From positions 1 through 59,194 of the forward strand of contig JBBTST010000011.1 in NCBI GenBank assembly GCA_038064575.1: DNA of 59,194 nt, read 5' to 3'. Below the pieces are notes generated by a model. That model had not been told where the DNA came from. It saw only the letters and a list, made by a program, of their open reading frames with translations, and searched no databases. This document shows positions 3,464 to 47,113 of the stretch, piece after piece. Source of the DNA: Patescibacteria group bacterium (GTDB lineage: Bacteria > Patescibacteriota > WWE3 > UBA101185 > 2-01-FULL-41-18). Made by a program: the position numbers and the translations under genes. The stretch's first letter is position 1; each line of letters begins with the position of its first letter.

Positions 3464-3505
3464 AAAGTCTTTACATTAAAAAAACAAAAAAGGTATCATT
3501 CCTTG

Positions 3506-4579
3506 ATGAACCCAATCAAAATTCTTGGCTCAGGTCCTTCCGCATTGTCTGCTGCTATAAATTTGGCAAAAGAAAAATTTGAAGTTCATGTGTATGAACA
3601 ACATGAGGAAATAGGTAAAAGGTTTCATGGGGACATTCAGGGACTTGAAAACTGGTCAAGAAGGGAAGATGTACTTGATACACTCGCAAAAATGAACATT
3701 AGTATAAATTTTGATTGTCAGCCATCATCAAAAATAATCGTTTCTAACGGGTCAAATACAAAAGAAGACATAACATTTAAAAGACCTATATATTACTTAG
3801 TTAAAAGAGGCTCGGTTGATGGTAGCTTTGATCAGGGGCTGAAAGATCAAGCTTCAAGTCTTGGGGTTAATATTCATTTTAATTCAACAATACCCAAAGA
3901 AGAGGCGGATATAATTGCCACCGGGCCAATTTCCCAAGAGCTTTTTGCTGCTGATGAGGGACTTATTTTTAAAACAGATATGGAAGACATGGTTGTGGCA
4001 ATAATCAATGACAAAGCTGCTCCTAAGGGTTATGCCTACCTAATAGTCACAAAAGGGTATGGTTGCCTTTGTACTTGCATATTTGAAGATTTTCCACATC
4101 TAAAAGATTATTTGGAAAGGGCAAAAGAGATGTTTGCTAAAATTGTAGATTTAAGAATTATTGAAAAGATAAGAGATGTAGGAGGGGTAGGATGTTTTTC
4201 CACTAAAAATATTTTCAAAGAAGGAAAAGCTCTGTTTGTGGGAGAAGCCTCAGGTCTTCAGGATATGCTCTGGGGATTTGGTATAAGAAACGCCCTAACT
4301 TCAGGGTTTTTGGCCGCAAGAAGCATTATTGAAAAGAGCGATTATGAAAAAGAAGCAAAAAGCTTTTTTATACCAAGATTAAGGGCAAGTCTTGTAAATA
4401 GATTCCTATACGAACTTTTTGCAATTGGTAACTACGCTCCTCTTATCAACAAATTCAAAAACGAACAGAATTTATTTGGTTGGATGGAATCCTTACATAA
4501 CTTCAATAAGATTCAGAAGGTTATCTACCCATTGGCCCTGGTCTATATGAGAAAGAGATACCCAAAACTTAGAATCTAA
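3506..4579 (+). CDS. FAD-dependent oxidoreductase, geranylgeranyl-reductase-like family
   Basis: N-terminal dinucleotide fold 'ILGSGPSALSAAINLAKEKFEVHVYEQ' followed by 'EEIGKRFHGDIQGL'. The C-terminal part carries 'FVGEASGLQDMLWGFGIRNALTSGFLAA', resembling the GDAAG...G.GI..A..SG motif of GGR-type flavoproteins. The ATG at 3506 is preferred over the TTG at 3503. Confidence 0.6.
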   Translation: MNPIKILGSGPSALSAAINLAKEKFEVHVYEQHEEIGKRFHGDIQGLENWSRREDVLDTLAKMNISINFDCQPSSKIIVSNGSNTKEDITFKRPIYYLVKRGSVDGSFDQGLKDQASSLGVNIHFNSTIPKEEADIIATGPISQELFAADEGLIFKTDMEDMVVAIINDKAAPKGYAYLIVTKGYGCLCTCIFEDFPHLKDYLERAKEMFAKIVDLRIIEKIRDVGGVGCFSTKNIFKEGKALFVGEASGLQDMLWGFGIRNALTSGFLAARSIIEKSDYEKEAKSFFIPRLRASLVNRFLYELFAIGNYAPLINKFKNEQNLFGWMESLHNFNKIQKVIYPLALVYMRKRYPKLRI

Positions 4580-4765: not shown

Positions 4766-5446
4766 TTACTGAACGCGCCTTAAAATTGCCATGGGAGTCT
4801 GCTCATCTCTCTGTCCAAACGGGTTATCTCTAAAAGCTTTTAGAATCAGATTCCTATCTACATTTTTTGAAACACCTTCCAATCTTTGTCCAAGGTCATT
4901 TGCATCTATAATTGCAGCACCAACCCCAAGAATTTTTCTCAGTTCTTCAGCAACCTGATCAGGCTTTTTAGGCCCAAGTTTGGCAGACATGTTCCCGGGG
5001 GGCAAGGTATAATCGCACGGCCCATCAATTGCATTGAGTCCATTTCCTGCAACTTTATAAAAAACTCCTTTCAGACCAAACGGCTTTGTAACAGCTGAAG
5101 TCAAGCAGGCTAGTAATATTCTCACAAGCCCTGCTTCCTTTAAAGCAAGCTCCATAGTATAAGGGCTTCTTAAACCTATTCCTCCAGGATTTTTTGTTAC
5201 AAATTTGTAAAGAGACCTGGCCCAGAAAGTAGGCTTAATGTCTGCAATCAAAAAACTTCTCCCCTGAGTTATGGCAACAACTCGTTCAGAAATTACAAAA
5301 ATATCTCCCAACTTAATTAGTCCATCAGTGTAATTTTTTGCAATTTCAATTATGTCCTCTTTAGCAGAAATAAGGTGGGTTTTTATCAACAATCTATCAT
5401 AAACTACACCTTCAACTTTAATTGGTTTATTTAAGGGCTCAATCAT
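4766..5446 (-). CDS. F420-0:gamma-glutamyl ligase (CofE)-like domain protein
   Basis: 226 aa with overall resemblance to the CofE-like fold family. It lies 12 nt downstream of asnB on the same strand. The family call is from memory only. Confidence 0.45.
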   Translation of the reverse strand: MIEPLNKPIKVEGVVYDRLLIKTHLISAKEDIIEIAKNYTDGLIKLGDIFVISERVVAITQGRSFLIADIKPTFWARSLYKFVTKNPGGIGLRSPYTMELALKEAGLVRILLACLTSAVTKPFGLKGVFYKVAGNGLNAIDGPCDYTLPPGNMSAKLGPKKPDQVAEELRKILGVGAAIIDANDLGQRLEGVSKNVDRNLILKAFRDNPFGQRDEQTPMAILRRVQ

Positions 5447-13168: not shown

Positions 13169-14647
13169 TTAAATAACTTCAATAATGTCCTGAGGTTTAA
13201 TATCTTTAAAAACGGGTTTTAACAAAATTCCGCAATCATTGTCGCGACCAACAGAGGAAACTTCATCTCTCCCTCTTCTCACACTTTTAACTTTTCCTGT
13301 ATAAACGGGCTGTTCAATACCTTCCCTGAAGACTGAAACCCTGCTGATATTTTTTATGGAGCCTGCTAATACTTTGCTTCCGGCAACAATATCTCCAGAT
13401 GCCAATGTAAAAGTCTGCAACACTTGAGCCCTGCCCTTAACTTTAACTTCTTCTTTATACATAAGCTCTGCTATAACATCTTTTAGGGTTTCTATGAGTT
13501 CATAAATTATTTTATATGTCTTAACTTTGACTTTTAGATTTTCTGATAAATCCAAAACCTTACCCGGGACCTTTGAATTAAATCCAAGAATTACAGCCTT
13601 TGAACTTTCCGCCATCAAGACATCAGATTCATTCACATCTCCCGTTGATTTGGAAATAATTCTGATGGGAAGGTTGTCTTTAATAAGCTCATCAATAGAA
13701 TATTCAAGCGCTTCTAAAGAACCTTCAGTGTCTGCTTTCAAAATAACATTACATGTATCAACACCACTTGCAAAGCCTCCTTTTGCTGCCCCAGAGCCGT
13801 CTGACAGCTCAACAAGATCCTTATTTTTAATATCAACAAAAACATCTCCCACTCTTGGCGCGTGGGAAAAGCCTAGGACTTCAACCGGATCACCGGGAAG
13901 AGCCTCTTTTAGCTGCTCTCCATTATAAGAAACCAAAGCTTTCACTTTTCCTTGCGCTTTGGAAGAATAAACTTCTAGTCCAACTCTCAACGTCCCATTT
14001 TTCACAATCCCGGTAAACAAAGGGCCTTTCTTTTGATCAAGTCTGGATTCAATTATAAGGCCTTCAAGATCCCCATTTGGATTTGCTTTTAATTCAATAA
14101 GATCGGCCAGAGTAACTATTGACTCAATTAATTTATCAACACCTAAGCCAGTTTTAGCTGAAACTTCACATGAAATAACATCCCCACCCCAAGTTTCAAC
14201 AAGGACATCGCTCTCTGCAAGTTCTTTTTTAACTTTTTCCGGGTTTGCTCCAGGAAGGTCAGATTTATTTAGAGCCACTATTAAAGGCGTTTTTGTCTCT
14301 TTTATTATTGAAATGGATTCCTTTGTTTGAGGTTGGACCCCATCTACAACAGAAACCACAAGAACAACAATGTCTGCGGCCCTTCCACCCCTAAGCCTCA
14401 TTTTTGTAAAAGCCGCATGCCCAGGAGTATCAATAAAAGTGATTTTTCTGGTCTTGTGCAGGATCTGATAAGCACCTATAGATTGAGTAATTCCACCTGC
14501 TTCTTTTTCTGCAACTTTGGTTTTTCTAATGTAGTCTAAAAGGGAAGTTTTACCATGATCTACATGACCCATTATGGTAATAATTGGAGGTCTTATAAAA
14601 TTGTCGGATTCCTTGCTTTGCATAAGATCCATATTCTGATTTGGCAA
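13169..14647 (-). CDS. infB: Translation initiation factor IF-2 (short form, TTG start)
   Basis: G-domain 'GHVDHGKTSLLD', 'DTPGH' and 'NKSD'. The 492-aa length means the N-terminal domains of long IF-2 forms are absent. Confidence 0.9.
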   Translation of the reverse strand: MPNQNMDLMQSKESDNFIRPPIITIMGHVDHGKTSLLDYIRKTKVAEKEAGGITQSIGAYQILHKTRKITFIDTPGHAAFTKMRLRGGRAADIVVLVVSVVDGVQPQTKESISIIKETKTPLIVALNKSDLPGANPEKVKKELAESDVLVETWGGDVISCEVSAKTGLGVDKLIESIVTLADLIELKANPNGDLEGLIIESRLDQKKGPLFTGIVKNGTLRVGLEVYSSKAQGKVKALVSYNGEQLKEALPGDPVEVLGFSHAPRVGDVFVDIKNKDLVELSDGSGAAKGGFASGVDTCNVILKADTEGSLEALEYSIDELIKDNLPIRIISKSTGDVNESDVLMAESSKAVILGFNSKVPGKVLDLSENLKVKVKTYKIIYELIETLKDVIAELMYKEEVKVKGRAQVLQTFTLASGDIVAGSKVLAGSIKNISRVSVFREGIEQPVYTGKVKSVRRGRDEVSSVGRDNDCGILLKPVFKDIKPQDIIEVI

Positions 14648-15923: not shown

Positions 15924-16499
15924 ATGTCAAGGGCGATTTTCTATGTCACTCAATTAACAGCTTATTTTACTGTTGGTTTAATAATAAGAATTATTATCAG
16001 ACCAAAGGTCAAAAGGCTATTCCAAAAGATAAACAAGCCGCTAATTATAGCCTCAAATCATCAGCATTTTTTAGATCCTTTTTTTGTCATGGCGAGTTTG
16101 TCTTTTAAGGACTTTCTGAAATGCCTCCCAATAAGATTTATTACGGCAAATAAATACATGAAATTTCCATTGCTCCCCTTACTTCTCACCTTTGGCTGTT
16201 ATAAAGCAAATAAAGAGGAGAACTACTCATGCACAGATGAATCAATTAAGTTTATTAAAAATGGGTTTACAGTATTTATCTTTCCTGAAGGAGGTATAGT
16301 TAAAGAAAAGCTCAACAACCCAAAGATTGGCGTTGGGGTTATAGCCATAAAATCAACTGCCAAAGTTTTGCCCGTAAATGTATCCTTAAACAACCTTGTA
16401 CTCAAAATAACTTTTGGTAGTTTCTTACTCTCAAAATCGGTGGAAGACCCAAAAGCCTTTGCAAACAAAGTTCTTAAAGTAATATATGAATACGAATAG
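15924..16499 (+). CDS. PlsC-type (lysophospholipid/glycerol-phosphate) acyltransferase
   Basis: HX4D motif in 'ASNHQHFLDPF' and block III 'FPEGG'. It overlaps the next gene by 14 nt. Confidence 0.7.
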   Translation: MSRAIFYVTQLTAYFTVGLIIRIIIRPKVKRLFQKINKPLIIASNHQHFLDPFFVMASLSFKDFLKCLPIRFITANKYMKFPLLPLLLTFGCYKANKEENYSCTDESIKFIKNGFTVFIFPEGGIVKEKLNNPKIGVGVIAIKSTAKVLPVNVSLNNLVLKITFGSFLLSKSVEDPKAFANKVLKVIYEYE

Positions 16500-17415
16500 A
16501 AAGATTGTACTTATTACCGGAGGAACTGGCAGACTAGGTACTCCTTTAATTAATAACCTCTCAAAAGATTATGAAAAGATCATAGTTCTTACAAGAAATA
16601 CAAATCTCAAAGGGAAAAACAATAAAATAAGTTTTTTGAACGCAGATATCACAAAAGAGAACTTAGGTCTCAACAGCAACGTTTATTCACAATTAACAAG
16701 CAACATAACAGAAATAATTCATATGGCGGCAAACACAAGCTTCACAGCATCATATCAAAAAGCAGCTTTGGTAAATATTAAGGGCACAAAGAACATACTG
16801 GGTCTGGCTAAAAAAACAAGGAATCTGAGAAAGTTTATACACTTTAGTACAGCGTTTATAAGCGGGGAAAGAGAGGGTGACATATTCGAGGAAGGACTTG
16901 AGCACAATGCAGGATTTGTTAATAATTATGAGTTAACCAAATATCAAAGCGAACTTATTGCTAGAGAGCATTTTTCCCAACTTCCAATTTCTGTAATTAG
17001 ACCGGTTCTAATTTTAACTAATGACAGTAAAAACATATTCAACGTCATGCTTGATAAAATCAAACAAAGCAAATTCTTCATAATTACGGGGTGTCCAGTA
17101 ACAAACTTGCATCTCATTCCTCTAAATAGCTTTGTTAAAAGAGTTTCTTCATCTCTTAATGATCTTCAGTCCGGAAAAGCTTATCACTTTGCAAATAAAC
17201 CGGACCAATTAATGACTCTTAGAGAACTTGTTGCTTTTGTAGAAAAGCTAATGAACAAAAAGATTATGATTATTAATCATAAAATTCAACTTGGAAAACT
17301 TTATAACTTAACAGGTCAGCTTTTTCACAGTAAAACTTTTTTCTCGGAAGACAAAAATAATTATTTGGGAGGAAAAAAACAAATTTTTTCCCATATTGAG
17401 GAGTATCTTAAATAG
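16486..17415 (+). CDS. Thioester (acyl-CoA/acyl-ACP) reductase-like SDR ('male sterility'/NAD_binding_4 type)
   Basis: 'LITGGTGRLG' Rossmann motif. 'ADITKENLGLNSNVYSQLTSNITEIIHMAANTSF', 'VNIKGTKNIL' and 'FSTAFISG' match the reductase-domain pattern. YxxxK is present in 'NNYELTKYQSE'. Confidence 0.6.
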   Translation: MNTNRKIVLITGGTGRLGTPLINNLSKDYEKIIVLTRNTNLKGKNNKISFLNADITKENLGLNSNVYSQLTSNITEIIHMAANTSFTASYQKAALVNIKGTKNILGLAKKTRNLRKFIHFSTAFISGEREGDIFEEGLEHNAGFVNNYELTKYQSELIAREHFSQLPISVIRPVLILTNDSKNIFNVMLDKIKQSKFFIITGCPVTNLHLIPLNSFVKRVSSSLNDLQSGKAYHFANKPDQLMTLRELVAFVEKLMNKKIMIINHKIQLGKLYNLTGQLFHSKTFFSEDKNNYLGGKKQIFSHIEEYLK

Positions 17416-17417
17416 AT

Positions 17418-18017
17418 ATGTTAGAAATTATAATTTTTTATTTTCTTCCACTTCTTAGTGCTAATGTCATACACCATAGCATTGTTATTAAAAAGAACTT
17501 ATTGGCAACTCTAGCCATACCCCTTGATTTAGGAAGCTACCTTAAGGGCAAAAGACTATTAGGGAAGTCAAAAACATTCAGGGGTTTTGTAGTGATAGCT
17601 TTTATCTCTACAAGCTTAACTTTTCTGTTAACAATGCTTGTTCATGAAAAAGATTTTGTATCAGTTACTCTGAGGAGTTTTATCATAAGTACTGGTTATA
17701 TGTTTGGTGAGCTTCCCACAAGTTTTTTAAAAAGAAGATTTAACATCAATCCCTCTCAACAGGCTGGCGGTATTAAAGGGTTTTTTTTCTACAGTTTAGA
17801 ACAAATTGATTCGGTAACAGTAGCGGTAGCCTTATCAGGTCTAATGAACAATCTAAGCATATATCAAATGACAATGCTATTGATCTTAGGAACGGCCACT
17901 CACATAGTGATTGATTTATCTTTATATTTTAAGGGGTATAAAAAACTGATTTCAAAACCTTTCTTTTTAACGCTTCTCACAAAAGAGAGAAGAAATACAA
18001 AGCTCCCCCGGCAATAG
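17418..18017 (+). CDS. CDP-archaeol synthase (CarS)/DUF46-like CTP-transferase membrane protein
   Basis: 'PLDLGSYLKGKRLLGKSKTFRG' and 'GELPTSFLKRRFNI...SLEQIDS' parallel the archaeal CarS signatures (P.D.G....G.R.LG.GKT.RG and GD...SF.KRR......LDQ.D). The protein has 5-6 TM helices. Confidence 0.55.
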   Translation: MLEIIIFYFLPLLSANVIHHSIVIKKNLLATLAIPLDLGSYLKGKRLLGKSKTFRGFVVIAFISTSLTFLLTMLVHEKDFVSVTLRSFIISTGYMFGELPTSFLKRRFNINPSQQAGGIKGFFFYSLEQIDSVTVAVALSGLMNNLSIYQMTMLLILGTATHIVIDLSLYFKGYKKLISKPFFLTLLTKERRNTKLPRQ

Positions 18018-18570
18018 GAACAAAAAGGTTATCTGTGCCATTTAAACTGGAAGCTTCAATAACTGAAAGAATAAACGAATAAAAAATGCTAAAAGGAAGC
18101 ATCACTCCAAAAGAACTATATACAAAGGTGGATACAACAATAAAAGACAAAGACCCTGCTAAACTCTTTTTTATAAACATTGGGCTTCTCACACAATAGC
18201 CCACCAAAAAGGCAAAAGTGTCGCTAAAGGCTAAAAGTATTACTGAAATCTGAAAAGTGGTAACAGATCTGGGCCAATACAAAAAAGCACAAATGCTGAG
18301 AGCTAAAGGCATTATATAGGATCCCTTTGTTTTTCTAGAAACGCCAGTAACACTTTTTAGAAAAGCATACTTTTCTAAAAAGAAAAATAAAACAGCAAAC
18401 AGAACTCCAATGGATAATGCAGAATTTAAACTTAAAAAATAAGGGAAAAAGTAAACCACAACACCAGCAAAAAGATGAGAAAACTTCCTTGTGAACTCCG
18501 GCTCCACACCAAGTTTCAAAAGAACTTCCCCAACTAGAAATATCAAAAGTAGAAGTACAATCAGGAACAT
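17977..18570 (-). CDS. Polyprenol/phytol/dolichol-kinase-like membrane protein (CTP-transferase-1 superfamily)
   Basis: Multi-pass membrane protein with 'FTRKFSHLFAG' near the N-terminus and 'EASSLNGTDNLFVPIAGG' near the C-terminus, as in phytol/dolichol kinases. It is the last gene of the minus-strand operon. Confidence 0.5.
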   Translation of the reverse strand: MFLIVLLLLIFLVGEVLLKLGVEPEFTRKFSHLFAGVVVYFFPYFLSLNSALSIGVLFAVLFFFLEKYAFLKSVTGVSRKTKGSYIMPLALSICAFLYWPRSVTTFQISVILLAFSDTFAFLVGYCVRSPMFIKKSLAGSLSFIVVSTFVYSSFGVMLPFSIFYSFILSVIEASSLNGTDNLFVPIAGGALYFFSLL

Positions 18571-19067
18571 CTTCTTAGATAGCTTTCAAACTTGTTTTTT
18601 CTTAATTTCATAAAGTTTTGGATAGCATGCCTGTTTAAATACCTTAAATAAAGCTTAAGTTTAACTATAAGAGGCAACAGCGAAAATTCAATCTTTTCAA
18701 AACCCCTCTCTGTAATAAACTTTGCAACACCCTCATTTGATGTTGTTGCAAGGGTGTTAGTCCCTGACAAATCTTCAAAGGCTTTAAGGATCAGGCCTCT
18801 GCTCACTCCCTCCCGTCTAAACTGCGGATATACATATAAATTTGAAACCACACCATAACTTGCCGTAATCTTTTCTCTTTCAATCCAGCCTATTAAAGTT
18901 TTATTGACATAAGCAAAAACAAACGTTTCTTTCACCAAGTTCTTTTTAAGAAGTCCTTTTGATCTTATTCCAAGTGTTTTTTCTGAACAACAAATCTTAT
19001 AGATAGTATCAATAAGTAAGTCCGGATTTGTAAAAGGTGGAAAGGACCCATCTAGGCATGCTATCAT
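18561..19067 (-). CDS. GNAT-family N-acetyltransferase
   Basis: 'LYVYPQFRREGVSRGLILKAFEDL' matches acetyl-CoA binding motif A (Q/R-x-x-G-x-G/A type). It overlaps both neighbours, by 4 and 10 nt. Confidence 0.6.
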   Translation of the reverse strand: MIACLDGSFPPFTNPDLLIDTIYKICCSEKTLGIRSKGLLKKNLVKETFVFAYVNKTLIGWIEREKITASYGVVSNLYVYPQFRREGVSRGLILKAFEDLSGTNTLATTSNEGVAKFITERGFEKIEFSLLPLIVKLKLYLRYLNRHAIQNFMKLRKNKFESYLRRCS

Positions 19068-19648
19068 TTCACCCCCATTGCAGAATAAACATAAAAAGAG
19101 AAAAGCCCAAAAGAGAGCATTAATAAAATATAAAAAATGGCTGAAACCTTAGGAAAGATAAACTTCTGTATCATCAGAAAACCCAGTATTAAATTAGAAA
19201 CCATAATTTGATATGTTTTCCCTTGAAAGGGCAAAAACCAAATAAAAAAAAGGCTATAAAGACTAAAAACAACAGGCAAACCCATATATCCTCTGGTTTT
19301 GCCTATATATGAATACCCGAATGTGTTAAATCTGATCAGTCTAAACACTCCACAGCAGACAAAAATAAAAAGCGACAGCTTTTCTCCAAAACTCAATGCA
19401 AAAGCACTCAAGAAAAAAATGGTGGGATAAACCAGATAAATAAAAATATCGGACGCGGAATCCAACTGCCTGCCAAAATTGGATTCTTCTTTGAAAAATC
19501 TTGCCACGTATCCATCCAAACCATCAAGCACAGCTGAAAAAAAAGCTAAGGCAATTGATAGCGTGTAGGAGCCTTGCACTGCAAGATCGATTGCAAACAA
19601 GACCAGCATTAAGGCCAGAAATGTCATGGCATTGGCTTTATGTTTCAT
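19064..19648 (-). CDS. CDP-alcohol phosphatidyltransferase (phosphatidylserine/archaetidylserine-synthase-like)
   Basis: Complete D-G-x2-A-R-x8-G-x3-D-x3-D motif in 'DGLDGYVARFFKEESNFGRQLDSASD'. The 194-aa protein is multi-pass membrane. Confidence 0.8.
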   Translation of the reverse strand: MKHKANAMTFLALMLVLFAIDLAVQGSYTLSIALAFFSAVLDGLDGYVARFFKEESNFGRQLDSASDIFIYLVYPTIFFLSAFALSFGEKLSLFIFVCCGVFRLIRFNTFGYSYIGKTRGYMGLPVVFSLYSLFFIWFLPFQGKTYQIMVSNLILGFLMIQKFIFPKVSAIFYILLMLSFGLFSFYVYSAMGVK

Positions 19649-21311
19649 TTATATACACTCTTCCGCTTTTTAGATCAACTTCTATAGTATCCCCATTTTT
19701 GATAACATCAGTTGCTCCAGAAACAGATACCACACAGGGAAGCCCATACTCTCTAGCAACAACTGCCGCATGGGAAAGAAGTCCTCCCCTTTCCACAATA
19801 ACACCCCTAAGAAGCGGGAATATTATTGTCCAACCCGGGTCAGTTTGGGAAGTCACCAGTATTTTATCTCTAAATGAGGCGTTATAATCAAATTCTTTTA
19901 GTACTAAAGCTTTTCCATTCAGCCTCATTGTGTCCCCAGTTGATGCTATCTTTCCCACCAGTTTACCCAAAATTTCCTTCTTATTAACGGTTAGTGAGAA
20001 ATCCAATTTTTTTCTTTTAGCTAATCTTTTATTTAAATCATCAGAAGTAAGCTTTGTCTCAATTCTTCTTGGAGGGTTTATACCTTTGAAAAGCTTAAAG
20101 AATCTTTTTCTTTTTCCTATCACTCGTTTTAAGAAGTCTTTCTTTTTACCAGCCAAAAGCATAAGCAGTTCTTCAACCTTCAAATAAAAAATGTCTTCTT
20201 GGTTATCAATTAAATGCTTATTCTTTAATCTTTGTGCCATCTCCAAAAAAACTTCTCTGGCAAAAGCAAAAATTTGAGCTCTTCTAAACCTTGCGTGTTC
20301 CCGTCTTGCAATTGAAGTGCTAACCCACCCCTTCAGAAAGGAAAAGGGCAAACTTATAAACCCCGATTCTCTTTCTTGTGCTTTGTCAGAAGAGAGCTTA
20401 GAGGGCACCTTTAGAGCATTTACAAGTATAGTAAGGACAAAGCTTTCATTTTGCTCAAAAGTTTTAGATTCTAATTTAAGCTCGCCCGGAACTTTGCTTC
20501 CAAAGTCTTTTATATATGAAACAACTAACTTTTTGAAAGCAAAATCAAAATTTTCAACATAAATCTTTTTATGCAAATTCTCAATAGAGTCAGTTAAAAA
20601 GATTTCTTTAAGTTTGGGATTGGCAGTTATAACTTCAAGCATCTCCATAAGTTTTTTTGATGGCTCTACACTTTTGATCAGCTGAGAACTCTTGAGAAGG
20701 GCAATAAGATTGGAATCGCCCTTTGACTGAGCTAGCCTGGAAAGCAAGCCAACACTAACCATAACTGCAAAATCATTAACTATGGGAATTCTAAAATCCT
20801 TAGTCATATTTTTTTCTGCATTTAAATAAAGTTTGCAAAGAGCAGAATCAGACAATAAAGAAAGATTTTCAGATTTTAAAAGCAATAATTTTTTGTCAAA
20901 ACTTTTAGTAAAAGCTCTAATTAATAAGGGCATAAATATAAAACTGAGGGTTATACAACACAAAGAATACAAAAAATGCAGAAGGGGTTGAGCATTAACC
21001 TTTTGTTTATAACTTTTTTCTACCCCAATCATCTGTTCAAGAAATTGTCTGGTGGATGAATAGAGAGGTAAAAAACTGAGGAGTCGGTGCCAATTTTTAA
21101 TGTGGTAATACATTCTCCCCCCAATATGAACAACAAGGTTATCAAAAAGCTTTGGGACTGAGGCAACTTTTTTTTCAGGCACCCCGAGTGCAAAACAAAA
21201 TTCTTTATAAACTCCGGAATATACTCTTTTTGCAAAGGAAAAAGTTAGAGTTGATGAAATACCTGAGTAGCTCTCTATCAAATTAGAGTTGTCATAAATA
21301 TACCTATTCAT
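19638..21311 (-). CDS. PEP-utilizing-enzyme mobile (phospho-His swivel) domain protein with a novel N-terminal region
   Basis: The C-terminal roughly 90 aa contain 'VIVERGGLLSHAAVVAREYGLPCVV', the swivel-domain His motif. The N-terminal roughly 450 aa are helical with no ATP-grasp motifs that I recognise. Confidence 0.6.
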   Translation of the reverse strand: MNRYIYDNSNLIESYSGISSTLTFSFAKRVYSGVYKEFCFALGVPEKKVASVPKLFDNLVVHIGGRMYYHIKNWHRLLSFLPLYSSTRQFLEQMIGVEKSYKQKVNAQPLLHFLYSLCCITLSFIFMPLLIRAFTKSFDKKLLLLKSENLSLLSDSALCKLYLNAEKNMTKDFRIPIVNDFAVMVSVGLLSRLAQSKGDSNLIALLKSSQLIKSVEPSKKLMEMLEVITANPKLKEIFLTDSIENLHKKIYVENFDFAFKKLVVSYIKDFGSKVPGELKLESKTFEQNESFVLTILVNALKVPSKLSSDKAQERESGFISLPFSFLKGWVSTSIARREHARFRRAQIFAFAREVFLEMAQRLKNKHLIDNQEDIFYLKVEELLMLLAGKKKDFLKRVIGKRKRFFKLFKGINPPRRIETKLTSDDLNKRLAKRKKLDFSLTVNKKEILGKLVGKIASTGDTMRLNGKALVLKEFDYNASFRDKILVTSQTDPGWTIIFPLLRGVIVERGGLLSHAAVVAREYGLPCVVSVSGATDVIKNGDTIEVDLKSGRVYINET

Positions 21312-22209
21312 ACTTAAGAAAGATTATCATGCCAAGATATACAAAGACACAATAAATGGAAATGCCATAAAAAAGAGTTTTTGAGGAATCACGGCTCTTA
21401 TGATTTAAATAATTAAGTACAAAGGGCAGAGGAAAAGAACTTAAAAAGATACTAAAGATAAGATGCCTTGACAATAAATAGCTTAAGCTTTCCATAAAAA
21501 GAAATAAGGATACAGATAGCAGGCAGCTTAATGCCACAAGTACTATGCTCACAAAATGTAATCCGTATCTTGCACTGTATGTGTCTTTGGAAGCATTTTC
21601 ATCAAGCTTGAAACGCGATTTTCTGGCAACCTCTATAAGCACAATAGTAAGAATAAAGAGTATAAGTTGCCAAAACATAGATCTGTTAATTGTAAAAGGG
21701 TTATTTATCCCAAAAAAAAAGAGCCAAAAATAAACAAATACAAAAACTAACTCGTGCAAGATAAGGTACAGAAGAAGTTTGCTTTTTATGAAGGCTCCTA
21801 CAAAAAATTCCTTATACATAAAAAATGTATAAATAGAAGCAAGTACAAAAACCGTTAAAGAAATTCCGTAACCTAAGAATAGGGTAATCAATAACTCTAT
21901 TAAAAAGGCTGTTATACCTAAGAGTTTCAATTCCAACAGTGAGAGTAGACCTTTCTGAATGGGTCTATCAGGATAATATTTAGAGTCATGAGCAAAATCT
22001 TTTAGCTCGTCCAAAACCCTTAATTTAAACAAAAATATAAAAAACATAAAGGCTCTTAAAACTACCAGTTTATAGCTGTGCTCAAAACCAAGTCGCCAAC
22101 TCAAAAGGCTTACACTAAGTCCTACTAAAAGAGTAAGAAGTAAAACTGAAAAGAAAGGAAAACGAAGGTGAACATATTGCCAAAGCCTCAATAAAAAGTT
22201 TTTTTTCAT
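21304..22209 (-). CDS. UbiA-superfamily-like polyprenyltransferase membrane protein
   Basis: About 8 TM helices. The first Asp-rich motif is 'LDELKDFAHDSKYYPDRPIQKGLLS' (compare NDxxDxxxD...RP..SG). The second region is 'KLDENASKDTYSARYG'. Confidence 0.5.
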   Translation of the reverse strand: MKKNFLLRLWQYVHLRFPFFSVLLLTLLVGLSVSLLSWRLGFEHSYKLVVLRAFMFFIFLFKLRVLDELKDFAHDSKYYPDRPIQKGLLSLLELKLLGITAFLIELLITLFLGYGISLTVFVLASIYTFFMYKEFFVGAFIKSKLLLYLILHELVFVFVYFWLFFFGINNPFTINRSMFWQLILFILTIVLIEVARKSRFKLDENASKDTYSARYGLHFVSIVLVALSCLLSVSLFLFMESLSYLLSRHLIFSIFLSSFPLPFVLNYLNHKSRDSSKTLFYGISIYCVFVYLGMIIFLKYE

Positions 22210-22231: not shown

Positions 22232-22642
22232 TTAGGGCTTTGGGGCAGAAGATAAAACGCTTGATACCAATTCCGACTTCCAACCTTTACTTATTAATGA
22301 GGTGCTTATTAGTTCATCATTCATTCCAGATGCTCTTGCTTTTGCAATATAGTCAAGAAGCACACCCTCCTCCTTATTCTTAAGCTTAGTAGAAACAGAT
22401 ATCAAAATTTCTTTCTCAATATAAGCTCTAGTGCTTGGAATAAGGTTTGGTATAACTAGCGCTAACATTATGTGCCCTATAAGAAGAGACAATCCAAACC
22501 ACACAAAAGCCCCCATCCCCGCAGTACACACAATAGAAAAAAACGCCAAAGTCATCACCTGATCAAATCCGCCAGAAGATAAAGCCAAAAAGATAACTAA
22601 AACCGGAAGACCAACTAAAGTTTTAATTAAATCTCTTTTCAT
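22232..22642 (-). CDS. Hypothetical membrane protein (3 TM helices plus a soluble C-terminal domain)
   Basis: 136-aa ORF that is co-directional and tightly packed in the operon. Confidence 0.5.
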   Translation of the reverse strand: MKRDLIKTLVGLPVLVIFLALSSGGFDQVMTLAFFSIVCTAGMGAFVWFGLSLLIGHIMLALVIPNLIPSTRAYIEKEILISVSTKLKNKEEGVLLDYIAKARASGMNDELISTSLISKGWKSELVSSVLSSAPKP

Positions 22643-22645
22643 AAC

Positions 22646-23695
22646 TTACAGCCTACTTTCCAGAATACAGTCGTGGTAAAAAACAAACGCAAGAATCAAA
22701 GCAAAATACAAGGGTATTGCCATAGCAACTTCAACTGGAATATGTGTAATAACTGTATTAAACCCTGAAAAACTTTGAGTGGCTGTTGGTCCATAAACTC
22801 TGATCCCATAATTCATGAATAGAGATTCTAACGGAAAGGCCACTACAGAAGTCAATCCCACAGAAAGAAGAAATTTCCACCTTGCGGAAAGAGTATAAAA
22901 AAGGTCTTCAACTACAAGAACTGACAGCGTAACCAAACAAACCCAAACTATACTCACCAAGAAACTTATATCCCTATAAAAATAAGACCAGCTAGGAAGA
23001 TTTCTATTGTAAACCATAGGCTCTATCATAAGTTCAAAGAGAAAAACTCCAATTAGAGACAGAATAAAAATTCTAAGAGTGCTTTTCTTTTTTGAGGGAA
23101 TGATTGGGCGTTTATCATAATCAAGCGTCATGTATTTATAAAAAGAGATAATTAAAAGAGAAAACACTGAGACATAATACAAAGCCTCAATTGGGGTACC
23201 CATAAAGGAGGTACCGCTTAAAACCTCCTTAACTTCCAAAGAGTATTCCCTTATACCAACACTAAGAACTACTGATTCAGCACTAAAGACTATTGCCGTT
23301 GTAATAATAAGATACACAGCAAATCTCAAATATTCTTTTCTTTTTTTCAGTAGAGTGTCAACAAGAGTCGTTACACCTAAAAATAGAGCTGTCCAAATTA
23401 AAGAAAGAATCCAGCTAATATCAAGATAAATATATGCAAATTTTCCAAGATGGCTATTTGTCCACATAGGAGCCGTGAACAATTCAAAAAGGAGCACCCC
23501 CGTAAAAGTTATTACGAACCTCATAAAAAACCTATTAACCATCTTGTAAACTACAAAGAGTGTGGCAAGACTTAAAAGCCCATAAATAAGTTCAAAAAGA
23601 AAGGCTTGAGAGGTAAGAGTCTTATCAAAAGAACATAAAGAACCAAGCAAACAGGGATCAATTACAGGCGCTTTTATAATAGAACTAAAATCCAT
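22646..23695 (-). CDS. Internally duplicated polytopic membrane protein (2 x ~150 aa), possibly lycopene-cyclase-domain-like
   Basis: Two halves align at a 150-aa offset: 'GVLLFELFTAPM..DIS..AES..GIREY..TPIE' versus 'GVFLFELMIEPM..DIS..LES..GIRVY..IPVE'. Confidence 0.6.
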   Translation of the reverse strand: MDFSSIIKAPVIDPCLLGSLCSFDKTLTSQAFLFELIYGLLSLATLFVVYKMVNRFFMRFVITFTGVLLFELFTAPMWTNSHLGKFAYIYLDISWILSLIWTALFLGVTTLVDTLLKKRKEYLRFAVYLIITTAIVFSAESVVLSVGIREYSLEVKEVLSGTSFMGTPIEALYYVSVFSLLIISFYKYMTLDYDKRPIIPSKKKSTLRIFILSLIGVFLFELMIEPMVYNRNLPSWSYFYRDISFLVSIVWVCLVTLSVLVVEDLFYTLSARWKFLLSVGLTSVVAFPLESLFMNYGIRVYGPTATQSFSGFNTVITHIPVEVAMAIPLYFALILAFVFYHDCILESRL

Positions 23696-23713
23696 ATCAG
23701 TTATATAATAAAA

Positions 23714-24880
23714 CTATTCAGGGCAACCGCAAGATTTTCCTACTCTTACTGAAGCTTGACTGCGAGTTGCAGAATCCTTGACCTTACAACCGCCCCATTT
23801 GGCTCTTAAAAAATCTGGAGAAGATGAAAGTTCTTCCCAAATTGCGAAAAGTGGTTTTTCCAATATATTTCCAAAAACAGCATGATTGAAATCACAAGAG
23901 CAAACATCTCCATAAGGGATTATATAGAAATAGCTTGTTCCACAGGAGCAACCCACACTCCTAAAACTTGTTGCATACGCAAAAAGTAAAACTCCAGGGT
24001 AGGAACTGTCATTATTATACTTTTTGGATTCCTCGATCATTGCTTCAACCCATGCGTTGTTATCTACAAGGTCTTCTCTTTTTTTAAGCCGTCCTGTAGG
24101 AAGCGAGTCAAAAATCAAGACTTCATGAATACCAATTTGCTTTCCAAACTCAATAATTTTGTCAAATTCCCCTTTTGCATAAGACTCGGGAGTTAAAGTT
24201 GCGGAGATGCCACATGACATCCCAAATTTCTTGGCTTCAAGAATACCCTCAACCGCTTTGTCAAAAAGTCCTTTCCTTCCCCTTAACATGTCATGGATTT
24301 CAGGATTTGCCGAATCAAGACTTATATAAACGCTATCAAGCCCTGCTTTTTTGTAAGAGAGTATATTCTCCTTAAGCAGGAAACCGTTTGTAAACATAAC
24401 CGTTGTTGATTGGTTCTTATCCACACTTGCAATAATTTCAGGCATATCCTCTCTTAATGAGGGTTCCCCACCAACAAAATTGATAGTGGAAACACCAAGT
24501 TCCTGCGCGTCTCTAATAAGTTTTTTTGCTTGTTCTAAATTTAAAACTTTTCTTGATTTGTCTTCAACTGCGCTGAAAAAACTGCAATGCTGACAATTTG
24601 CATTGCAAATATCATTTACCGCAAAACTAATAAGATTTGGTAGATTTTTGTTTTGTATACCTTTGTACACAGCTCTTGCCAGAAAGTTTGCAGCGGGTTT
24701 ACTAAAAAGCGCCGGTGTAGAAAGCGAATAAACAGGAAAGCCACCCCTATAATGAATCACTTTGTTATGATTTAGATAAATTTTATAAAGAATATCAACA
24801 TAGTCTACAGTGTAGCCAAGAGTCCTTTTTGCAATAAAATATTTGAGTTTTAATCTGTTGAGTAATTGGTTAATAATCAT
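23714..24880 (-). CDS. Radical SAM enzyme with a SPASM/twitch-like C-terminal Cys cluster
   Basis: CX3CX2C in 'CNANCQHC' and the 'GGEPSL' SAM-binding motif. The C-terminal 'GCSCGTSYFYIIPYGDVCSCDF...WGGCKV...CGCPE' suggests an auxiliary-cluster domain. It is the first gene of the minus-strand operon. Confidence 0.8.
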   Translation of the reverse strand: MIINQLLNRLKLKYFIAKRTLGYTVDYVDILYKIYLNHNKVIHYRGGFPVYSLSTPALFSKPAANFLARAVYKGIQNKNLPNLISFAVNDICNANCQHCSFFSAVEDKSRKVLNLEQAKKLIRDAQELGVSTINFVGGEPSLREDMPEIIASVDKNQSTTVMFTNGFLLKENILSYKKAGLDSVYISLDSANPEIHDMLRGRKGLFDKAVEGILEAKKFGMSCGISATLTPESYAKGEFDKIIEFGKQIGIHEVLIFDSLPTGRLKKREDLVDNNAWVEAMIEESKKYNNDSSYPGVLLFAYATSFRSVGCSCGTSYFYIIPYGDVCSCDFNHAVFGNILEKPLFAIWEELSSSPDFLRAKWGGCKVKDSATRSQASVRVGKSCGCPE

Positions 24881-45343: not shown

Positions 45344-45998
45344 TTTTTAAAAGTGCATTAAACGTCTTGGCTTCAAGACTTGCTTTACCCACAAGAAAAC
45401 CATTAAAGTGCGCTCTATCATACAAAGCGCTTACATTATCCGGGTTTGCAGAGCCTCCATAAACCACTACTCTATCCCCTACTAACGCCTTTATCTTTTT
45501 TGAGGTCTCTATAATCTCATCTAAAGGCGTTTCACTATAAACACCTTCCTTTGAGATGGCTTTTGGGTCCTCCCATACCAATACAGCCTTTTCAGGCCAA
45601 TTCTGCTGAAAATTCTCGTAAGTTTTGAGGCAAAGTATTGGATTTATTCCATGTCTTAGACAGACTTCCACTTTTTCCTGTGTTTGATATAAGGGTTCAG
45701 ACCTCTCACTATGTCCAATTATTGAGAAGGTACCAAAATCTTTGAGCTGAAGCACTGAAACTTCACCGGTATGGGAGCCTTCTTCAAAAACTGAAATATC
45801 CTGGGACCCTACAAACACATTTGTTAAGTTAAACGACTCAATAAGACTTTTGACAAGAGGAAGATAAGGATAAGAGGGACAAATAACAACAATCTGATTA
45901 ACAGCCGACTGGTAAAGTAAAGAGAATTCCTCAAACCAAGAAAGAATTTGGCTAGATGTTTTATTTTGTTTCCAGTTTGCTATTAGATAATTTTTCAT
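45333..45998 (-). CDS. tpiA: Triosephosphate isomerase
   Basis: 'IANWKQN', 'IIGHSERS' and 'VVYGGSANPDN'. Confidence 0.85.
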   Translation of the reverse strand: MKNYLIANWKQNKTSSQILSWFEEFSLLYQSAVNQIVVICPSYPYLPLVKSLIESFNLTNVFVGSQDISVFEEGSHTGEVSVLQLKDFGTFSIIGHSERSEPLYQTQEKVEVCLRHGINPILCLKTYENFQQNWPEKAVLVWEDPKAISKEGVYSETPLDEIIETSKKIKALVGDRVVVYGGSANPDNVSALYDRAHFNGFLVGKASLEAKTFNALLKSVK

Positions 45999-46839
45999 AT
46001 ATAAAATTTGTGGTTGAGTTTACAAGTATTGGGAGGTTTTCTAAATCTCCGTGGTTATAATCGTAACCAAGAGTGTTCAAACATGCAAATACTAAAGATA
46101 GATCGGAATAAATTGGATCGGCAAACTTGCAGGCTACCAAACAGTGTGTAAAGACATCCCCCCCGCTTTCTCCAACCTTTGAATCCTTACAGCCCATAGG
46201 ACAGCCGGAGCAGGAGGCATTATTTGAAGGCTCTATAAGAAGCATTTTTACCTTTGACAGAATTTCCAAGTAAAGCTTTTCATATTTTGGGTTTAGCATA
46301 GTTTGTGTTTCTTCCGTTCCTGAAACAGTGATAGCAACAACACCTTTTGCCTGTAGTTTCTCAGAAAGCGCGTTACCACCAAAAGCAAAAACTCCATCTG
46401 TTAGAAACTGTTTGTGCTTTGAGTCAACAGACATAACACATCTTTTGCCCGGGGTTCCAACAGAAAACGGGTCCGTTGAGGCATTGTAAAAGTTTACCTC
46501 TCTTCCTGCGATTGAGATCACAACAGGGGCTTTAGCAGAACCTTCTAAAACTATGGCGTCAAAAGAAGAAAACTGTAATCTTGTTGATAACTTACCCCCT
46601 ACATAAACATCATGAAATGAAAAGTCTTCAACAAAAGAGGCACAAGTCTTTGAAACAAATGGGAAGAAACCGTTCAGAGGCCCCACAGAGAATACAACCG
46701 GATCAAAATCAAGCCTCTCCTTTGTCAAAAAAGAGGCAAAGCCTACACCCCCAACAAATTTGTGAATATCATCATATGATTTGGTGGTAGCCAACCTTTT
46801 TGTCAAATCTATATGAAGAATTACTTTATTAATCCCCAT
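45961..46839 (-). CDS. Truncated aldehyde:ferredoxin oxidoreductase (AOR)-like protein: AOR N-domain plus the CxxCxxxC cluster motif only
   Basis: 'NKVILHIDL...FVGGVGF...VGPLNG...FDAIVLEGSAKAPVVI...VVAITVSGT' follows the AOR N-terminal domain, then 'CSGCPMGC'. The protein ends at about 292 aa, so the pterin-binding C-terminal half is absent. The start is at the ATG at 46839. Confidence 0.5.
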   Translation of the reverse strand: MGINKVILHIDLTKRLATTKSYDDIHKFVGGVGFASFLTKERLDFDPVVFSVGPLNGFFPFVSKTCASFVEDFSFHDVYVGGKLSTRLQFSSFDAIVLEGSAKAPVVISIAGREVNFYNASTDPFSVGTPGKRCVMSVDSKHKQFLTDGVFAFGGNALSEKLQAKGVVAITVSGTEETQTMLNPKYEKLYLEILSKVKMLLIEPSNNASCSGCPMGCKDSKVGESGGDVFTHCLVACKFADPIYSDLSLVFACLNTLGYDYNHGDLENLPILVNSTTNFIYEKLSNSKLETK

Positions 46840-47113
46840 TAGATTCTCCTTCAAGCATATACTCCAGCTCAGATAAATCTTCCGTGTCATCAACAGAAAA
46901 ACAATCTTTGGGACAAATCCCAGCAATCTTGTCTATTTCAAGGTCATTAACCGATGGGTCCAAATGAATTTTAAAAGGCTTGTCTTTACCCAAAATCTTA
47001 ACTGGCGAGCCCGAAATACCAACTCTCCCACAAAGCCTGTTAGCCACAAAAGCACAAAGTTCACAACCTATACATTTATCAGGGTTTGTTACTCTCAAAA
47101 TTTTCCTGGTCAT
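46829..47113 (-). CDS. Small 4Fe-4S ferredoxin-like protein
   Basis: 'CIGCELC' plus a distal 'ICPKDC' (Cys-Pro), and an acidic C-terminal tail. It overlaps pgk (35 nt) and the AOR-like gene (11 nt). Confidence 0.6.
   Translation of the reverse strand: MTRKILRVTNPDKCIGCELCAFVANRLCGRVGISGSPVKILGKDKPFKIHLDPSVNDLEIDKIAGICPKDCFSVDDTEDLSELEYMLEGESNGD

Follow-up and report, generated by a model that had tools for sequence, protein, structure and literature searches.

A CarS-like membrane protein of a separate bacterial clade, a predicted lipid-phosphate cytidylyltransferase, in a gene cluster of a Patescibacteria bacterium

The stretch of 59,194 nucleotides (nt) of contig JBBTST010000011.1 (assembly GCA_038064575.1; Patescibacteria group bacterium), hereafter called the window, encodes at positions 17418 to 18017 of the plus strand a 199-amino-acid (aa) membrane protein of the CarS-like family. 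As judged from sequence comparison, this protein is not an orthologue of archaeal CarS and is a member of a separate bacterial clade. By analogy with CarS and CdsA, we consider it probable that it is a CarS-fold CTP:lipid-phosphate cytidylyltransferase of a dedicated phospholipid pathway, in which it may act on a prenyl- or alkyl-type lipid. Thus, the finding is most likely a sign of a bacterial route to phospholipids that has not been studied so far, and not of borrowed archaeal lipids.

Family membership and predicted fold

The open reading frame (ORF) runs from ATG to stop, and the opposite strand of the same interval contains many stops. A preliminary description, made from the letters alone, had quoted three motifs of the protein as the conserved cytoplasmic-loop signatures of archaeal CarS, namely, PLDLGSYLKGKRLLGKSKTFRG (residues 35 to 56), GELPTSFLKRRF (residues 97 to 108), and SLEQIDS (residues 126 to 132). 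Both the ORF and the motifs are real, and the latter comprise the loop columns that are kept in the bacterial clade as well as in archaeal CarS (P35, D37, G49, K52, T53, G56, S102, F103, K105, R106, R107, Q129, and D131). Furthermore, H162 and K175 are also common to both clades, the shared residues being those that probably serve catalysis and nucleotide binding, and column 128 is an Asp in both, the window protein presenting E128 at this position and T101 in place of the Asn of the family; both changes are conservative.

The assignment to the CarS/DUF46 family made in the same description was borne out by the Pfam profile, by the sequence match to Aeropyrum pernix CarS (ApCarS), and by the predicted fold. 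In particular, PF01864 (CarS-like, the former DUF46) was matched with 50.3 bits (gathering cut-off [GA], 22; E = 3.7e-13), residues 5 to 175 aligning with positions 8 to 171 of the 175 of the model. The sole sequence relative in the PDB was ApCarS (5GUF), with E values of 9.9e-6 for the single sequence and 5.1e-17 for the family profile, and this profile matched no solved CdsA among the PDB sequences at E ≤ 1. A word-index homology search with the single protein as the query returned two proteins only, and an exhaustive profile search yielded 1675 representative relatives, 700 of them at E ≤ 1e-10. It follows from the PF01864 match, the single-sequence match to 5GUF, and the relatives retrieved by profile that the ORF did not arise by chance.

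A structure model (AlphaFold2) built from an alignment of 116 relatives (predicted local distance difference test [pLDDT], 92.8; predicted template modeling [TM] score, 0.85) features five long helices and a structured loop. When it was compared with the PDB by Foldseek, 5GUF was the sole match at E ≤ 0.001 (probability, 1.00; target-normalized TM score, 0.76; root mean square deviation, 3.1 Å; identity, 24%), so that the superposition on ApCarS proposed earlier as a check was obtained with the predicted structure, a five-transmembrane-helix fold with two cytoplasmic loops. An earlier model from a two-sequence alignment, with a pLDDT of 62 and meaningless PDB matches, was replaced by this one. 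On the basis of the profile, the 5GUF match, and the modeled fold, membership in the CarS-like family is established as far as computation allows.

Separation from archaeal CarS

The part of the preliminary description that our results do not support is the reading of the protein as a CarS-type enzyme activating unsaturated archaetidic acid. On the equivalog model NF003114 (CDP-2,3-bis-(O-geranylgeranyl)-sn-glycerol synthase; EC 2.7.7.67), the window protein scored 68.3 bits versus a cut-off of 148, which was thus not reached, and a Firmicutes member of the same clade scored 81.5 bits. The comparison set consisted of 120 archaeal CarS sequences gathered with ApCarS as the query. The window protein obtained 177 bits on the hidden Markov model (HMM) of the bacterial clade versus 67 on the archaeal CarS HMM, and on the archaeal HMM the two groups were without overlap, with scores of 163 to 232 for the archaeal sequences and 38 to 94 for the bacterial ones. 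Moreover, in a neighbor-joining tree (a distance method) built on 171 columns from 45 sequences of the bacterial clade and 45 of archaea, the split between the two groups occurred in 100 of 100 bootstraps. It is from the score below the NF003114 cut-off, this split, and the two HMM scores that we conclude that the protein is not a CarS orthologue. The diagnostic positions, numbered as in the window protein, are E98 in the bacterial clade versus D in archaea, L99-P100-N101 versus x-A-G, S132 versus F, and Y94 versus A.

The bacterial clade is recognized by the motif ELPNSFxKR(R/Q). With each species represented by a single genome, a scan for the pattern ELPNS[FY]xKR[RQ] located relatives in at least 582 species genomes of many phyla, and among the matches listed all 80 of 80 genomes are those of Bacteria. 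These include Chloroflexi, Myxococcales and other Deltaproteobacteria, Acidobacteria, Planctomycetota, Actinomycetota, Bacteroidota, Spirochaetales, and many Clostridia, together with the Lloydbacteria, Moranbacteria, and CPR3 groups of the candidate phyla radiation (CPR) and the cultured strains Lachnospiraceae P6A3 and AC2028, Streptococcus ferus DSM 20646, and Paenibacillus agilis N4. A widespread bacterial family with an established, different function had been named beforehand as the outcome that would speak against the archaeal assignment; the family is indeed widespread, and an established function was not found in the literature searched.

Gene linkage and fusions in other genomes

The genomic context was compared over 82 independent loci, 41 of which have at least 8 kb on both sides. 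In these well-flanked loci, a gene similar to those for rifampin phosphotransferase (Rph) or phosphoenolpyruvate (PEP) synthase occurs in 26 and a UbiA-like gene in 20, while a protein of approximately 355 aa resembling GNAT is encoded in 18, a CDP-alcohol transferase in 16 to 19, and a phosphatidylserine (PS) decarboxylase (Psd) in 16 of them. The operons recur in Firmicutes, Chloroflexi, Proteobacteria, Bacteroidota, and CPR, and the cluster of the window is kept in other CPR genomes (loci L001, L010, L052, L062, and L078). The operon of Lachnospiraceae AC2028, for instance, comprises, in this order, the CarS-like gene, a PEP-synthase-like kinase, a CDP-alcohol transferase, a PS decarboxylase, a UbiA-like protein, a second PEP-synthase-like kinase, and a GNAT-like protein.

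At five loci from several phyla the operon includes a 3-hydroxy-3-methylglutaryl coenzyme A (HMG-CoA) reductase, which at two of them is fused to an EcKL/APH-type kinase. Taken together with the family profile of the UbiA-like proteins, whose best solved relative is the archaeal digeranylgeranylglyceryl phosphate (DGGGP) synthase, these five operons hint at an isoprenoid link, and the reductase-kinase fusion may make and phosphorylate the alcohol of the pathway. The fusion proteins have 942 aa in P. agilis N4 (L082, 10620 to 13448) and 909 aa in locus L046 (140 to 2869).

The fusions involving the CarS-like domain itself concern the same partners. The commonest one, found in 10 representative proteins, is a PlsC-type acyltransferase C-terminal to the CarS-like domain (BLASTP E values of 2e-23 to 2e-15). 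In addition, we could notice fusions of UbiA-like and CarS-like domains (P0060 and P0131), of a FAR-like reductase with a CarS-like domain (P0075; E = 9e-32), of the PPDK_N ATP-grasp domain with a CarS-like domain (metagenomic protein P0015), and of a polytopic membrane protein, here named memX, placed in front of the CarS-like domain (P0085 and P0147).

Other loci carry extra genes for PEMT, DUF3419, MMPL, or AMP-binding proteins. Among these are head-group genes, since some operons encode DUF3419 and a PEMT-type phospholipid methyltransferase (L019, 15067 to 16161; L041, 15711 to 16244); DUF3419 is the family to which BtaA, an enzyme of betaine-lipid synthesis, belongs. Loci L001 (CAYSID010000006.1) and L052 (CAZXZY010000031.1) belong to metagenome-assembled genomes (MAGs) labeled "uncultured Gammaproteobacteria" and present the CPR-type cluster, with the gene triad described below, the same order of memX and GNAT, and proteins 37 to 59% identical to those of the window. 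These labels may be placeholders and were not used as taxonomic evidence.

Proposed role

It is possible to hypothesize that the five-helix CarS-fold membrane enzyme would use CTP to place a CMP group on the phosphate of a membrane lipid phosphate, as CarS and CdsA do, and so yield a CDP-activated lipid. A PssA-like CDP-alcohol transferase would then convert the CDP-lipid by introducing a serine-type head group, which in many other bacteria could be decarboxylated by the PS decarboxylase and possibly N-acylated by the GNAT protein. The fold, the conserved residues, and the position in the pathway are our reasons for predicting a cytidylyltransferase whose product passes to a serine-type CDP-alcohol transferase.

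The substrate would probably be neither ordinary phosphatidic acid nor archaeal DGGGP. A specialized substrate appears likelier than plain phosphatidic acid because of the linkage to UbiA-type genes, the thioester-to-alcohol reductases, the enzymes that phosphorylate hydroxyl groups, and the accessory status of the operon in Firmicutes. This substrate may come from the combined action of the UbiA-like prenyltransferase and the PlsC-like acyltransferase with a supply arm made up of a reductase and a kinase, in which a FAR-like or HMG-CoA-reductase-like enzyme would act with the Rph-like enzyme and memX. The lipid would be a prenyl- or alkyl-bearing glycerophosphate lipid, possibly of mixed ether/ester type.

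A broader and rather doubtful extension of this proposal is that the CarS-like clade and its partners constitute an unrecognized multi-phylum phospholipid pathway mirroring the archaeal membrane steps and leading to prenyl- or alkyl-ether, possibly hybrid ether/ester, serine or ethanolamine lipids. If this were true, the CarS/UbiA-type lipid module would be an old bacterial inheritance or the product of an ancient exchange, and not an archaeal hallmark, and in genome-reduced CPR it could be the main route of lipid building or remodeling.

Alternative explanations

Several observations weigh against the role proposed above. The function is a prediction for every member of the clade, based on sequence, model, and gene context. 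Since 15 of the 41 well-flanked loci show no partner gene at all, members of the clade may differ in function. The window protein carries T101 and E128 at positions where more than 90% of the relatives have N and D, its Rph-like neighbor is devoid of the ATP-grasp domain, and the UbiA-like protein falls below the Pfam cut-off and has an atypical second Asp-rich motif. Finally, the PlsC-type acyltransferase, the commonest fusion partner, suits plain phosphatidic acid equally well.

This last observation bears on a serious rival, to which we nevertheless assign only a minor share of the probability, namely, that the enzyme is a housekeeping substitute for CdsA which turns ordinary phosphatidic acid into CDP-diacylglycerol in a lipid-scavenging CPR bacterium, the PssA-like neighbor then making phosphatidylserine. 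It would agree with the nature of that fusion partner, a phosphatidic-acid-making enzyme, with the JGI label of CDP-diglyceride synthetase given to many clade members, with a weak match to PF01148 (CTP_transf_1, the CdsA family; 23.1 bits, below the GA of 24, over residues 34 to 111 only), and with the finding that CdsA is not encoded in the window. Nevertheless, the family profile matches CarS and not solved CdsA, the protein has 199 aa and five helices without the N-terminal domain of CdsA, and the clade is also represented in Streptococcus, Paenibacillus, and Lachnospiraceae, where the gene belongs to a specialized operon with a UbiA-like gene and two PEP-synthase-like kinases. These Firmicutes have their own essential cdsA, beside which the CarS-like gene would be accessory. 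The acyltransferase fusions also count against another explanation, which we regard as rather unlikely, in which the substrate would be a non-glycerol lipid phosphate (polyprenyl, fatty-alkyl, or diol) supplied by the reductase/kinase arm and the product a lipid-phospho-serine or -ethanolamine built on no glycerol backbone, since such fusions argue for a lyso-glycerophosphate intermediate; moreover, the use of such a phosphate is not known for any member of the CarS or CdsA families. What speaks for it is the thioester-to-alcohol reductase directly upstream (FAR-like in the window and HMG-CoA-reductase-type in the five other loci, two of them with the EcKL/APH kinase), the ability of Rph-like enzymes to phosphorylate hydroxyl groups, and a cluster without a glycerol-phosphate supply gene.

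That the gene came from archaea and encodes a genuine CarS (EC 2.7.7.67), activating DGGGP or archaetidic acid in a bacterium that makes archaeal-type diether lipids, is unlikely. The Pfam CarS-like membership and the 5GUF fold match are compatible with such an origin, as are the UbiA-like gene nearest to the solved DGGGP synthase, the CDP-alcohol transferase scoring best on archaetidylserine synthase models, and a weak match to the geranylgeranyl reductase family at 3503 to 4579 (see below). On the other hand, the equivalog score is far under its cut-off, every bootstrap sets the protein apart from the whole sample of 45 archaeal CarS sequences, its nearest relatives are bacterial among the matches listed, the archaeal-specific residues differ (D for E98, A-G for P100-N101, and F for S132), and geranylgeranylglyceryl phosphate (GGGP) synthase and glycerol-1-phosphate (G1P) dehydrogenase are both missing from the window. 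It is hardly conceivable, on the other side, that a chance ORF or a decayed, nonfunctional gene is at issue. T101 and E128, at near-invariant family positions, and the 41-nt 3' overlap with a convergent gene might be taken as signs of decay, but the two replacements are conservative, the full-length alignment with the relatives keeps all invariant residues, the overlap is kept in related CPR loci, and an identical protein is present on 13 contigs from several samples. The contigs carrying it derive from the 0.1-μm filter fraction of Hainich groundwater.

Comparison with known systems

With archaeal CarS (A. pernix, 5GUF; Archaeoglobus fulgidus), the window protein shares PF01864, the fold of five helices and two cytoplasmic loops (TM score, 0.76, for the predicted model), the polar loop residues PxD...G..KT..G, SFxKRR, and DQxD together with H162, and a downstream partner of the CDP-alcohol (serine-type) transferase kind. 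Different from archaeal CarS, it belongs to a separate clade with a score under half of the equivalog cut-off and has a bacterial host, with GGGP synthase and G1P dehydrogenase not nearby, and the archaeal pathway lacks the Rph-like kinase, acyltransferase, FAR, and GNAT partners of the bacterial cluster.

CdsA (Thermotoga maritima, 4Q2E; PF01148) belongs to the same CTP-transferase superfamily, has the same place upstream of a CDP-alcohol transferase, and presumably performs the same chemistry, the transfer of CMP to a lipid phosphate. The architectures are different, since CdsA has approximately 250 to 290 aa and nine helices, whereas the CarS-like protein, with its 199 aa and five long helices, falls short of it by about 100 residues and has neither the N-terminal nor the dimerization helices; CarS, too, is described as being without the CdsA dimerization domain (review PMC7018664).

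The bacterial cluster contains a distant homologue of each of the archaeal membrane steps (DGGGP synthase, CarS, archaetidylserine synthase, and decarboxylase), the decarboxylase step being represented in 16 of the 41 well-flanked loci. However, these homologues are divergent, most of them falling below curated cut-offs, the early steps of G1P dehydrogenase and GGGP synthase are not in the window, and the bacterial cluster adds kinases, reductases, acyltransferases, and N-acyltransferases. The relevance to the lipid divide claimed by the preliminary description is therefore kept in a changed form: a role as true CarS is unlikely, and the link rests on the order of UbiA-type, CarS-type, serine transferase, and decarboxylase functions, which parallels the archaeal membrane steps through distant bacterial homologues.

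The myxobacterial ether-lipid enzyme ElbD combines fatty-acyl reductase and AGPAT domains and makes alkylglycerol lipids. The window likewise pairs an NAD_binding_4 thioester reductase with a PlsC-type acyltransferase; unlike ElbD, the two are separate, small proteins without ligase and acyl carrier protein domains and are linked to CarS-like and UbiA-like genes. As for the 557-aa neighbor of the CDP-alcohol transferase, it shares with Rph of Listeria (5FBS/5HV1; E = 7e-25) the substrate-binding region and the His swivel domain, but the window copy is without the ATP-grasp domain and its context is lipid biosynthesis instead of antibiotic resistance.

Relation to previous work

The proteins of the clade are already public under the automatic database names "CDP-archaeol synthase" or "CDP-diglyceride synthetase," and as such they are no novelty. 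In the literature searched, where full-text searches returned nothing on a bacterial CarS-like clade or on this cluster, it appears that neither their standing as a separate bacterial sister clade nor the conserved partners and the fusions have been described. CarS has been described as an archaeal enzyme with a part in maintaining the lipid divide, as conserved among archaea, and as separating archaeal from bacterial substrates (PMC4244643, PMC9385802), it was not detected along with the archaeal-type lipid genes of Cloacimonadota and other FCB-group bacteria (PMC7852524), and it was not analyzed by Coleman et al. (2019).

A bacterial sister clade in hundreds of species, culturable Firmicutes included, represents a testable candidate for a so far undescribed way of making membrane lipids in bacteria and provides a second CarS-type lineage with which to root the history of CDP-lipid activation. 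CPR bacteria are thought to lack most lipid synthesis, and in the window a compact lipid module stands amid core housekeeping genes.

Gene cluster in the window

The cluster extends from 15.9 to 24.9 kb, and its minus-strand genes converge on a plus-strand unit. This unit is opened by a small PlsC-type acyltransferase (15924 to 16499; PF01553, 42 bits) with the motifs HX4D (NHQHFLD) and FPEGG. The following gene (16486 to 17415, plus strand) encodes the FAR-like protein, a thioester-reductase-type short-chain dehydrogenase/reductase of the NAD_binding_4 family (PF07993, 126.8 bits; TIGR01746, 104 bits), and its stop lies 2 nt before the ATG of the predicted cytidylyltransferase of the bacterial sister clade.

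The 3' end of the CarS-like gene overlaps by 41 nt (17977 to 18017) with that of the convergent memX gene (17977 to 18570, minus strand). In related CPR loci, the same overlap measures approximately 18 to 24 nt (L001, 10511 to 10534; L008, 651 to 671; L062, 10520 to 10537). Terminator-like sites in the overlap are not above chance, and across the cluster the scans predicted promoters and terminators in the same numbers as in shuffled controls. The conserved memX protein had no family match in Pfam (E values up to 10), NCBIfam, or the PDB profile search, and its hhalign comparison with the CarS-like protein was insignificant; it stands beside the CarS-like gene in 10 of the 82 independent loci. 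A possible resemblance of memX to polyprenol kinases, which would favor a non-glycerol lipid phosphate as the substrate, was not borne out by the Pfam, NCBIfam, and PDB profile searches.

The next gene on the minus strand (18561 to 19067) encodes a short form of a GNAT-fold N-acyltransferase (PF00583, 23.9 bits; GA, 20.7), which can be aligned to the GNAT domain at the C terminus of the ~355-aa protein present in 27 of the 82 loci (hhalign probability, 82%). It is followed by the CDP-alcohol phosphatidyltransferase (19064 to 19648, minus strand; PF01066, 68.2 bits), with the full DGxxDGxxAR..G...D...D motif. The latter is nearest to the PssA or archaetidylserine-synthase type, with 69 bits on TIGR04217 and 65.8 bits on TIGR00473, both under their own cut-offs. 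The preliminary description had placed this transferase beside the CarS-type gene; it does belong to the same cluster but is not adjacent, since two genes lie between them and it is part of the convergent unit.

The rifampin-phosphotransferase/PEP-synthase-like protein (19638 to 21311, minus strand; PF00391, 80.2 bits; PF27448 Rph_4th also matched) covers only positions 323 to 891 of the 898 of NF004881, and an ATP-grasp partner for this shortened protein was not detectable in the window. In CPR relatives, truncated forms of 566 to 571 aa are found, L001 has the gene divided between two ORFs, and the Moranbacteria locus L062 encodes a full-length protein of 864 aa. The UbiA-like gene (21304 to 22209, minus strand) encodes a divergent membrane protein of the UbiA prenyltransferase superfamily (PF01040, 30.4 bits, below the GA of 34.2; NF010118, E = 4.5e-8). 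The match of its family profile to the archaeal DGGGP synthase (6M31; E = 2e-8) concerns the first Asp-rich motif only, and chlorophyll synthase comes next.

The remaining minus-strand genes (22232 to 24880) form a triad that we found only in the CPR versions of the cluster (L001, L052, and L062). It consists of a 136-aa protein without a family match (22232 to 22642), kept in L001 and L062 according to tblastn and also in L052 according to ORF clustering; of a 349-aa membrane protein, u349 (22646 to 23695), with an internal duplication visible in its sequence, no family match, and 39 to 43% identity to its counterparts in L001, L052, and L062; and of a radical SAM/SPASM enzyme (23714 to 24880; PF04055, 98.6 bits; PF13186, 26.7 bits), kept at 53 to 61% identity in L001, L010, L052, and L062. 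The idea that u349 and the 355-aa GNAT-like protein form one family was rejected (hhalign probability, 0.2%). Neither could the radical SAM enzyme be shown to be a relative of tetraether synthase, since its match to 7TOL concerned the generic core only and ranked below unrelated enzymes.

Host and flanking genes

The bacterial housekeeping context reported in the preliminary description was confirmed. RNase J, UDG, AsnB, PNPase, S15, IF-2, and NusA are encoded upstream of the cluster, and the downstream flank carries the genes for DnaJ, DnaK, GrpE, HrcA, NrdR, TrmD, LepA, MurJ, sortase, TIM, PGK, GAPDH, UvrD, and KsgA; PlsY, like CdsA and the two early archaeal enzymes, was not found in the window. 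LepA is 75% identical to that of a Candidatus Saccharibacteria MAG and 61 to 64% identical to those of Patescibacteria MAGs, from which it follows that the host is a CPR (Patescibacteria) bacterium, in agreement with the bacterial host proposed before. IF-2 (13169 to 14647, minus strand) is short (487 to 492 aa) and lacks the long N-terminal region typical of bacterial IF-2, which fits a reduced CPR genome.

At 3503 to 4579 of the plus strand, 11 kb from the lipid cluster, a 358-aa flavoprotein shows the weak match to the geranylgeranyl reductase family mentioned above (TIGR02032, 38 bits versus 158.8), together with a match to digeranylgeranylglycerophospholipid reductase (E = 2.8e-5). On this thin sequence evidence, it might relate to isoprenoid saturation. 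Elsewhere in the window, we could notice an F420-0:gamma-glutamyl ligase-like protein (4766 to 5446, minus strand; PF01996, E = 1e-10) and, at approximately 45961 to 46926, an AFOR_N-domain protein, as given by the contig annotation.

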